Shown here in pieces: positions 17,467 to 18,041 of a stretch of DNA of 41,766 bases. Numbering within the stretch: position 1 is the first letter of the stretch; each line of letters starts with the position of its first letter. The notes beneath the pieces are model-generated. The model did not search any database. It saw only the letters and a program-made list of their open reading frames with translations, and was not told the origin of the DNA. Source of the DNA: a virus (Duplodnaviria; Heunggongvirae; Uroviricota; Caudoviricetes); the IMG/VR virus record IMGVR_UViG_2531839131_000018; one strand, written 5' to 3'. The position numbers and the translations under genes were made by a program.

Positions 17467-17892
17467 ATGTTTGGTATTTTCAAAAAGAAAACCCGCAAGG
17501 CCATTACCGAAGTGAAGAAGATGGAGAACCGCGACGCAGTGGAGGCGACCGTCTGGGGCGCGTATTCCATTGCATACGCTGACGGCACCTGTGATGCGAA
17601 AGAAATCGCAGTACTGGAGAAAACCATTGCAGCACTTCCTGCCTTTGCGCCGTTCTCCGGTGAGATTGCCCAGATGAGCGCCAATATCCGCGCCCGTTAT
17701 GAAGCATCCCCGCGTTCAGCCAATGCCGAAGCCCTTCGTCAGCTGGCTGATGTCGCCGGTACTGATGATGCAGTTAATGTGCTGTGCCTGTGTCTGGATA
17801 TCGCTGACCAGGATGGCATTGGTCCGGATGAAGAAGCACAGCTCAAGAAAATTGCGCAGGCGCTTCAGCTACCGCTGGAGCAGTACCTGTGA
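17467..17892 (+). CDS. TerB-like domain protein (141 aa), candidate moron
   Basis: Composition and motif pattern (AYADGTCDAKEIAVLEKTIAALP ... LCLCLDIADQDGIGPDEEAQLKKIAQAL) resemble TerB-family proteins; sits between tRNAs and the lysis genes. Confidence 0.55.
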   Translation: MFGIFKKKTRKAITEVKKMENRDAVEATVWGAYSIAYADGTCDAKEIAVLEKTIAALPAFAPFSGEIAQMSANIRARYEASPRSANAEALRQLADVAGTDDAVNVLCLCLDIADQDGIGPDEEAQLKKIAQALQLPLEQYL

Positions 17893-18041
17893 AAAGTGCG
17901 CGCCTTGTGCTGGCTGCCATCCTGCTGTTTCTGGTAGTGGCAGTGGATTTCACCGGACGGCTGATGTCGGTGCTGGCAGATGGTGTGCTGGTGGTGATGG
18001 CGCTGGTCGTGCTCCGGCCTTTACTGCGTAAATCTGAATAA
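17889..18041 (+). CDS. Possible small membrane protein (50 aa)
   Basis: GTG start overlapping the TerB-like stop; VKSARLVLAAILLFLVVAVDF...VLVVMALVVLRPLLRKSE has two hydrophobic segments; followed by terminator hairpins. Confidence 0.3.
   Translation: MKSARLVLAAILLFLVVAVDFTGRLMSVLADGVLVVMALVVLRPLLRKSE

Follow-up and report, generated by a model that had tools for sequence, protein, structure and literature searches.

What are the two small genes that stand where Shiga toxin (Stx) phages carry their toxin genes, and what might they do for the phage? The question is raised by a stretch of viral DNA of 41,766 nucleotides (nt), the IMG/VR record IMGVR_UViG_2531839131_000018 of the Caudoviricetes, which is called the window in the following. 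A first-pass annotation, made from the sequence alone, had placed a TerB-like protein and a coupled, hydrophobic small open reading frame (ORF) between the tRNA genes and the lysis cassette. Both ORFs are indeed present at the positions it had given:

17467-17892, plus strand: tciA-like ORF with an ATG start, 141 amino acids (aa)
17889-18041, plus strand: tciB-like ORF with a GTG start, 50 aa

The two ORFs overlap by 4 nt, the sequence GTGA holding both the start codon of tciB and the stop codon of tciA. By its similarity to the genes of phage P1, the pair is with very little doubt a P1-type tciA/tciB: P1 tciA shows ~82% nucleotide identity to the window (megablast, phage records), and the proteins share 86% (TciA) and ~47% (TciB) of their amino acids with those of P1. 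The first-pass annotation was thus right about the TerB-like protein and its small companion, but it had missed their equivalence to tciA and tciB. The pair is an accessory cassette that is already known and annotated, and the databases contain proteins identical to both: TciA shows 100% identity to an E. coli chromosomal 'tellurite resistance TerB family protein', and TciB to P0328 ('DUF3927 family protein'), which is present on 234 contigs. As the pair is annotated in thousands of genomes, the novelty of the locus is lower. The interest of tciAB lies in the fact that it is common, that it occupies the same privileged position as the Shiga toxin genes and that tciA is strongly conserved by selection. 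Moreover, TerB domains have recently been found in several validated anti-phage systems, in which their role is not understood; the two-gene phage version would therefore be a convenient experimental handle.

TciA, TciB and their relatives

Both ORFs are backed by profile matches and by the way in which they have evolved. TciA matches the Pfam family TerB (PF05099) with an E-value of 1.2e-7 and 32.4 bits, the curated cut-off of this family being 24.4 bits, and it matches PHROG 632 ('tellurite resistance') from end to end (E 4e-65). An NCBIfam search gave only a sub-threshold DjlA match. TciB matches the Pfam family DUF3927 (PF13064; E 5.9e-13) and PHROG 1470, which is labelled 'TciB-like' (E 6.5e-24). 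The median pairwise ratio of non-synonymous to synonymous substitution rates (dN/dS) among 13 loci was 0.06 for tciA and 0.33 for tciB. As judged from these values, tciA is under strong and tciB also under purifying selection, and on the evidence of their sequences both ORFs are real genes and not chance reading frames.

TciA is almost certainly a full-length homologue of TerB, and it is predicted to form a six-helix bundle. The solved structure of TerB from K. pneumoniae (2JXU, nuclear magnetic resonance) was reached only with a family profile; a search of the Protein Data Bank with the single TciA sequence missed 2JXU and returned nothing but spurious matches to PNPase and histones. The profile of 63 family members (A2) matched 2JXU with an E-value of 4.3e-19, and the alignment is nearly full length (profile positions 11-142 against 17-149). 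An AlphaFold2 model that was built on the family alignment consists of six helices, with a mean predicted local distance difference test (pLDDT) score of 86.4 and a predicted template modelling (pTM) score of 0.79. Using this model, Foldseek returned the TerB-family structure 2H5N as the top match with a probability of 1.00, and 2OU3, of the same family, was also among the top matches. The TerB-like assignment has thus been borne out by sequence (PF05099), profile (2JXU) and fold (2H5N and 2OU3). The first-pass annotation had named a search with the PF05099 hidden Markov model and a structure prediction as checks; both were run and both were positive, so the absence of TerB-fold similarity that would have spoken against the assignment was not observed.

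The N-terminus of TciA is basic (MFGIFKKKTRK) and its body acidic, the net charge being +5 over residues 1-20 and -10 over the remainder, and the protein is predicted to be soluble. The N-terminal motif M-F-G-x-F-x-K-K is nearly invariant in the family. Across the 63 family members, two sets of residues vary hardly or not at all: D39, G40, E46 and D116, G117, E122. Such paired acidic motifs (ADG..D/E..E) characterise TerB proteins and are putative metal ligands. With the TerB protein of the terZABCDE operon, TciA shares homology over the full length, the same helical fold and two copies of the acidic ADG motif. In contrast to TerB of the ter operon, TciA stands alone with a 50-aa membrane partner, and the MFGxFxKK motif is specific to its family.

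The hydropathy profile of TciB contains two hydrophobic segments at residues ~6-20 and ~25-42, with the sequence DFTGR between them, and both termini are basic. Judging by this profile, the two helices of TciB are hydrophobic and form a small hairpin, both ends of which would be cytoplasmic according to the positive-inside rule. A tciB-like ORF follows tciA in all 17 curated loci, which include P1, Citrobacter, Enterobacter, Erwinia, the prophage Sp10 of E. coli Sakai, a Vibrio prophage and a metagenomic phage. Among these loci, the TciA relatives of the Vibrio prophage and of the metagenomic phage are 30-40% identical. In every one of the 17 loci, the two genes either overlap, by 4 nt (GTGA) or by 1 nt (ATGA or TAATG), or are separated by a single nucleotide. 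Likewise, tciB was found in 83 of the 83 IMG/VR contigs that contain a full tciA and enough downstream sequence. The coupled hydrophobic small ORF of the first-pass annotation is therefore well founded, given the DUF3927 match, the translational coupling in 17/17 loci, the dN/dS value of 0.33 and the two hydrophobic segments. TerB and DUF3927 also occur in single polypeptides, namely in P0051 (196 aa, P1-type lineage) and in P0284 (197 aa, Sakai-type lineage). These could be natural fusions but also frameshift, sequencing or assembly errors, and they lend the two-protein unit weak support.

The pair of the window can be compared with that of P1 (NC_005856): the P1 TciA is likewise 141 aa long, its gene is followed by a DUF3927 tciB with overlapping stop and start codons, and tRNA genes are nearby. 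The functional label rests on homology only, in P1 as well as in the window. However, P1 has tciA-tciB-tciC inside the C1-controlled ban operon, while the window pair lies in a Q-dependent late operon, and P1 is without the structured leader that is seen in the window. There is no tciC in the window: a tblastn search with P1 TciC gave nothing better than an E-value of 0.4 and no match near the locus.

A search of 5426 complete E. coli genomes gave some match to positions 17300-18140 of the window in 1149 of them, and 165 genomes cover at least 80% of this region. The matches fall into 1547 chromosomal and 210 plasmid places, and P1-like phage-plasmids also carry the cassette. A scan of genome contigs with single-protein patterns yielded 12 loci; the wider context was taken from IMG/VR and from protein look-ups. 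In the Sakai prophage Sp10, the 'TciA/TerB-like protein' ECs_1959 occupies the same slot after the antiterminator, ileZ and argO. It belongs to a separate coding lineage (143 aa, 43% identical to the window TciA), and a 617-aa gene is located between tciAB and the holin gene. The Sakai record (NC_002695) contains an unannotated tciB-like ORF at positions 5091-5258 of the extracted locus (L004), which overlaps ECs_1959 by GTGA; a 'hypothetical protein' on the minus strand, ECs_1960, has been annotated across it.

Some host labels in the collection call for caution. The record of the 'Actinobacillus phage vB_Apl-pPE4' (PP818812.1; L002) carries tciAB, holin genes and flanks with ~95% nucleotide identity to the window, and the assignment to an Actinobacillus host is doubtful. 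In three further loci, assigned to a Bacillota metagenome-assembled genome (L005), to Pseudomonas lundensis (L010) and to Kocuria sabuli (L016), TciA is 87-96% identical to the E. coli protein; these labels are likely due to contamination or mis-binning.

The stx slot and the expression of tciAB

The surroundings of the pair comprise the following features, given with the evidence for each of them:

14545-15366, plus strand: antiterminator Q, by which the late operon is read through (Pfam Antiterm, PF03589, E 2.2e-50)
15372-15474, plus strand: candidate promoter PR' (TTGATT at 15372-15377, 16-nt spacer, TAAATT at 15394-15399) and candidate terminator tR' (hairpin at 15447-15466 and T run)
17042-17117, plus strand: tRNA-Met(CAT), at the ileZ position of phiP27 and Stx phages (ARAGORN; Rfam tRNA, 72.5 bits; synteny)
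17215-17291, plus strand: tRNA-Arg(TCT), at the argO position (ARAGORN; Rfam tRNA, 70.1 bits; synteny)
17305-17331, plus strand: terminator-like hairpin (17305-17324) and T run after argO, part of the phage backbone and not of the cassette
17351-18035, plus strand: tciAB cassette of ~680 bp with leader, tciA and tciB (empty-site comparison)
17371-17456, plus strand: conserved extended hairpin in the tciA 5' leader, which spans 17351-17466 (minimum free energy (MFE) fold, RNAalifold)
18093-18115, plus strand: terminator-like hairpin (18093-18108) and T run before the holin genes, part of the backbone
18134-18526, plus strand: holin of the family PF16931 (Pfam, PHROG)
18498-18794, plus strand: holin of the family PF05449 (Pfam, PHROG)
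18775-19341, plus strand: GH108 endolysin with a peptidoglycan-binding domain (Pfam, PHROG)

The phage closest to the window in the methylase gene is the Stx2e phage phiP27. Its gene order is a TrmB-like ORF, a DNA methyltransferase gene, ileZ, argO, stx2eA, stx2eB, L27, two holin genes and an endolysin gene, while the window has a winged helix-turn-helix ORF, the methylase gene, tRNA-Met(CAT), tRNA-Arg(TCT), tciA, tciB, two holin genes and an endolysin gene. The Stx2 phage 06-3462 carries stx2AB directly behind a terminator that is annotated after argO, and the similarity to the window stops just past this terminator. As far as can be read from gene order, tciAB thus occupies the stx slot of related prophages, as had been claimed in the first-pass annotation, and the comparative genomics of the slot that it had called for was carried out. 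The cargo is different: stx2eAB of phiP27 and stx2AB of the Stx2 phages are unrelated to tciAB in sequence and function.

The borders of the insertion were obtained from a prophage of E. coli 2020N21-246-1 (L022) that has the same holin genes and an empty site. It aligns to the window up to ~17350 and resumes at ~18036 with nothing in between, which bounds the insertion as a cassette of ~680 bp. Both flanking hairpins are present in this prophage, where the empty site leaves ~100 nt between them. Thus, the two terminators that had been said to bracket the pair are indeed predicted, but they belong to the phage backbone and not to the inserted cassette. The pair is a discrete cargo between the post-argO terminator and the lysis genes that is absent from a similar prophage; a promoter and a terminator of its own, which belong to the classical definition of a moron, were not found, as no sigma-70-like site was detected and the flanking hairpins are backbone.

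How could tciAB be expressed from this position? The lambda-PR'-like hexamers of the candidate PR' were read by eye and were not called by the promoter scan; the Stx2 phage has an annotated pR' and a terminator at the place equivalent to the candidate PR'/tR'. The late operon contains four terminator-like hairpins, which start at 15447, 15779, 17305 and 18093; the one at 15447-15466 is strong, and the first three of them are located between PR' and tciA. A scan of 15300-19500 revealed no sigma-70-like promoter (3.1 expected by chance), and the suggestion that the genes might also be transcribed in the lysogen has thereby found no support. Because of the terminator-like hairpins and the lack of a sigma-70-like promoter, the most economical reading is that of a late transcript. 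From its position, tciAB is probably expressed from the Q-modified late transcript and in dependence on induction, as is the case for stx. A study of P1vir infection by RNA sequencing reports P1 tciA, tciB and tciC as being among the genes with differential expression. Moreover, the virulent Pseudomonas phage PMBT3 has a 35%-identical TciA relative among its replication genes. Together with the location of the P1 genes in the ban operon, these observations point to a use in lytic growth.

Several minor features of this region were noted. The methylase gene (N6/N4; 15943-16992) has an in-frame amber codon (TAG) at 16570-16572; the phiP27 methylase, which is otherwise 90% identical, has a leucine at this position and is uninterrupted over 352 aa. 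The gene of the window is therefore probably a nonsense pseudogene. A weak tRNA-like match between the two tRNA genes (17125-17198), at the argN position of Stx phages, scored 23.7 bits against an Rfam threshold of 29 bits and is probably a decayed tRNA gene. A small winged-helix ORF (15598-15792) with weak matches of the TrmB/MarR type lies between the candidate tR' and the methylase gene, at the position of the phiP27 gene L23 ('TrmB family transcriptional regulator'). Finally, a sub-threshold Rfam match to 'Trp_leader' at 15385-15473 (29 bits against a threshold of 41 bits) most likely reflects the terminator hairpin only.

The leader hairpin upstream of tciA

The 5' leader of tciA is predicted to fold into an extended hairpin that appears to be undescribed. 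In its basal stem, CCUUU (17371-17375) is paired with AAAGG (17452-17456), which is the Shine-Dalgarno (SD) sequence of tciA. The z-score of the MFE of the leader is -2.67. Among 26 distinct leaders, 97.3% of the alignment cells are paired and seven pairs have changed on both sides; none of 500 shuffles reached the observed value and slid controls gave 33-49%. The inner helix that was proposed by RNAalifold differs between the alignments of 10 and of 26 sequences; the first version was tested and the second was not counted separately. An alternative 8-bp pairing between CCACAGAG (17363-17370) and CUCUGUGG (17411-17418) crosses the basal helix. The leader was also considered as a degenerate tRNA, prompted by an 8-bp stem of GGGUGAGC and GCUCACCC; this idea was rejected because ARAGORN and the Rfam tRNA model were negative and no cloverleaf could be seen by eye.

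The ~110 nt in front of tciA are ~88% identical between the P1-type and the Sakai-type lineages, as compared with only 43% for the proteins, and the Sakai Sp10 leader has ~88% nucleotide identity to the window over 17300-17497. The motif GCCUUUCRGGGGUGAGC is present in at least 120 IMG/VR contigs, and in all 104 cases that have a start codon no more than 130 nt away, the motif is located ahead of a TciA gene of one or the other lineage. No Rfam family matches the leader. The stem that pairs with the SD sequence suggests that translation of tciA may be gated, and the gate might open when the long late transcript is processed.

Possible roles of the pair

As the best explanation overall, we tentatively regard tciAB as a P1-type accessory cassette (a 'moron') that may serve as a membrane-protective unit of the late operon. 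In the lysogen, the genes would be silent owing to the terminator-like hairpins, the lack of a detected promoter of their own and the paired ribosome-binding site. Upon induction, both proteins would be made together from the Q-antiterminated late transcript, and TciB might hold TciA to the cytoplasmic membrane, on its inner face, much as TerB is found on the membrane together with TerC. The pair could then protect or monitor the membrane of the phage-producing cell. Such a function would resemble a Ter-like exclusion of membrane-directed insults, for instance by superinfecting phages or pore-forming colicins, and not a detoxification of tellurite.

The model draws on analogy with TerB proteins from other systems. 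In papers on defence systems that contain TerB, it is described as membrane-associated or amphitropic, with membrane proteins as its partners. The basic and nearly invariant N-terminus of TciA is also in keeping with a membrane role. Shango, Bunzi and Dionysus, which are validated defence systems, have TerB-domain proteins among their components, and for these a surveillance of the membrane has been proposed. As in tciAB, a TerB-type domain (in SngA, BnzA and DinB, respectively) is combined with membrane components in these systems. In contrast to them, tciAB is without a helicase, an ATPase or a pore-forming partner, and it is phage-borne and found in lytic-cycle operons. By this analogy, it appears moderately probable that TciA and TciB form a membrane-associated two-protein unit, while the specific role in protection or exclusion is doubtful.

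Several observations weigh against the membrane-protective unit. No model of PADLOC-DB v2 matches TciA or TciB at E-values up to 1, and no experiment on either protein was found in the searchable literature, including any that would bear on the stress-response or defence role held conceivable in the first-pass annotation; nor did the literature on ECs1959 and the 'TerB-like protein' yield expression or functional data for the prophage gene. The label 'tellurite/colicin/cell division' goes back to homology only in the sources. P1 tciABC is non-essential for lytic growth according to CRISPR interference, and it is a variable region that about half of the P1-like plasmids in one subgroup no longer have; the authors of the study on these plasmids state that a link of tciABC to phage inhibition 'remains unclear'. 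In the AlphaFold2 model of a natural fusion, the TciB part is a two-helix hairpin, but the pTM score was only 0.65, which leaves a contact between TciA and TciB without structural support. For this model, the TciB sequences were dropped from the joint alignment of TciA and TciB as MAFFT had put them on the N-terminus of TciA. The virulent phage PMBT3 has its TciA relative without a tciB, and the TciA tree does not seem to agree with the TciB tree: between the Sakai type and the window, TciA has 43% identity, yet the Sakai-type TciB is as close to that of the window as the P1 TciB is. The leader structure has been derived from the same sequences in which the pairing was assessed, and it is accompanied by few independent changes. 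Finally, none of the genes terZ, terA, terC, terD and terE is found beside the pair, the neighbours of which are tRNA, methylase, holin and endolysin genes. Since no other ter genes adjoin the pair, the phenotypes of the ter operon are not simply transferable to it.

A bolder version of the membrane-protective unit includes the leader. It is conceivable, though unlikely as a whole, that tciAB and the SD-sequestering leader form a minimal, lytic-only TerB membrane module, that this module blocks TerB-type or membrane-sensing defences of the host or else excludes superinfecting phages and pore-forming colicins, and that the leader is a new cis-regulatory RNA, for example a translation switch that is activated by processing or gated by structure. 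If this were true, it would give a first function to a stand-alone TerB protein and provide a simple two-protein model of the TerB domains in defence systems.

The pair could also be a minimal abortive-infection or superinfection-exclusion system of the type 'TerB sensor plus membrane effector', an explanation to which we give only a small chance. TciB would then be a membrane-damaging peptide that is restrained or triggered by TciA when an incoming phage disturbs the membrane, to the benefit of the lysogen or of the resident phage. This idea fits the TerB-domain components of Shango, Bunzi and Dionysus, the last of which combines a TerB-like protein and a pore-forming membrane protein with several helices. 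It also fits the small size (50 aa), the strong hydrophobicity and the strict coupling of TciB to TciA, and in its gains and losses the cassette resembles a defence gene. However, a steady expression in the lysogen, as such a system would need, is at odds with the three terminator-like hairpins between PR' and tciA, with the paired ribosome-binding site and with the lack of a detected promoter of its own. Moreover, the PADLOC search gave no match, relatives are located in lytic or replication modules, one of them in a virulent phage, and tciB is under purifying selection with no toxin-antitoxin arrangement being evident.

An improbable alternative is counter-defence, in which TciA as a TerB look-alike would disrupt TerB systems of the host (the 'phage inhibition' by ter or Shango-like systems), for example through mixed assemblies at the membrane that are inactive. 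The location in lytic-cycle operons of P1, lambdoid phages, the Vibrio prophage and the virulent Pseudomonas phage would suit this function, as would the dispensability in a laboratory host, the strong purifying selection on tciA and the predicted homodimer of a TerB-like defence component. The proposal is entirely inferential, though, and a simple decoy leaves the conserved pairing with TciB unexplained; in lambdoid phages, the late operon is also a late place for blocking a defence that acts early.

It is quite improbable that the pair is a lysis-timing accessory, with TciB as a holin- or antiholin-like protein and TciA as its regulator that together tune the neighbouring holins. The pair is located directly upstream of two holin genes in the window, and among the 37 viral contigs that extend far enough downstream, 21 have it directly before holin genes; TciB is also small with two membrane helices. 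However, the P1 pair lies in the ban operon and far from the lysis genes, the 617-aa gene separates the pair from the holin gene in Sakai Sp10, and the relatives of the Vibrio prophage and of PMBT3 are found among replication genes. Furthermore, TciB matches no holin family but only DUF3927 (Pfam) and PHROG 1470, and prophages with the same holins but without the cassette exist.

That tciA is a lysogenic-conversion gene for tellurite resistance, as suggested by its database name and its homology to TerB of terZABCDE, is very improbable because this TerB stands alone without an adjacent terC, terD, terE or terZ, the promoter scan gave none that could serve in the lysogen and the label is given 'by homology' in every source consulted. 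The annotation as a 'tellurite resistance protein', a name given by homology only, is thus probably misleading for tciAB.

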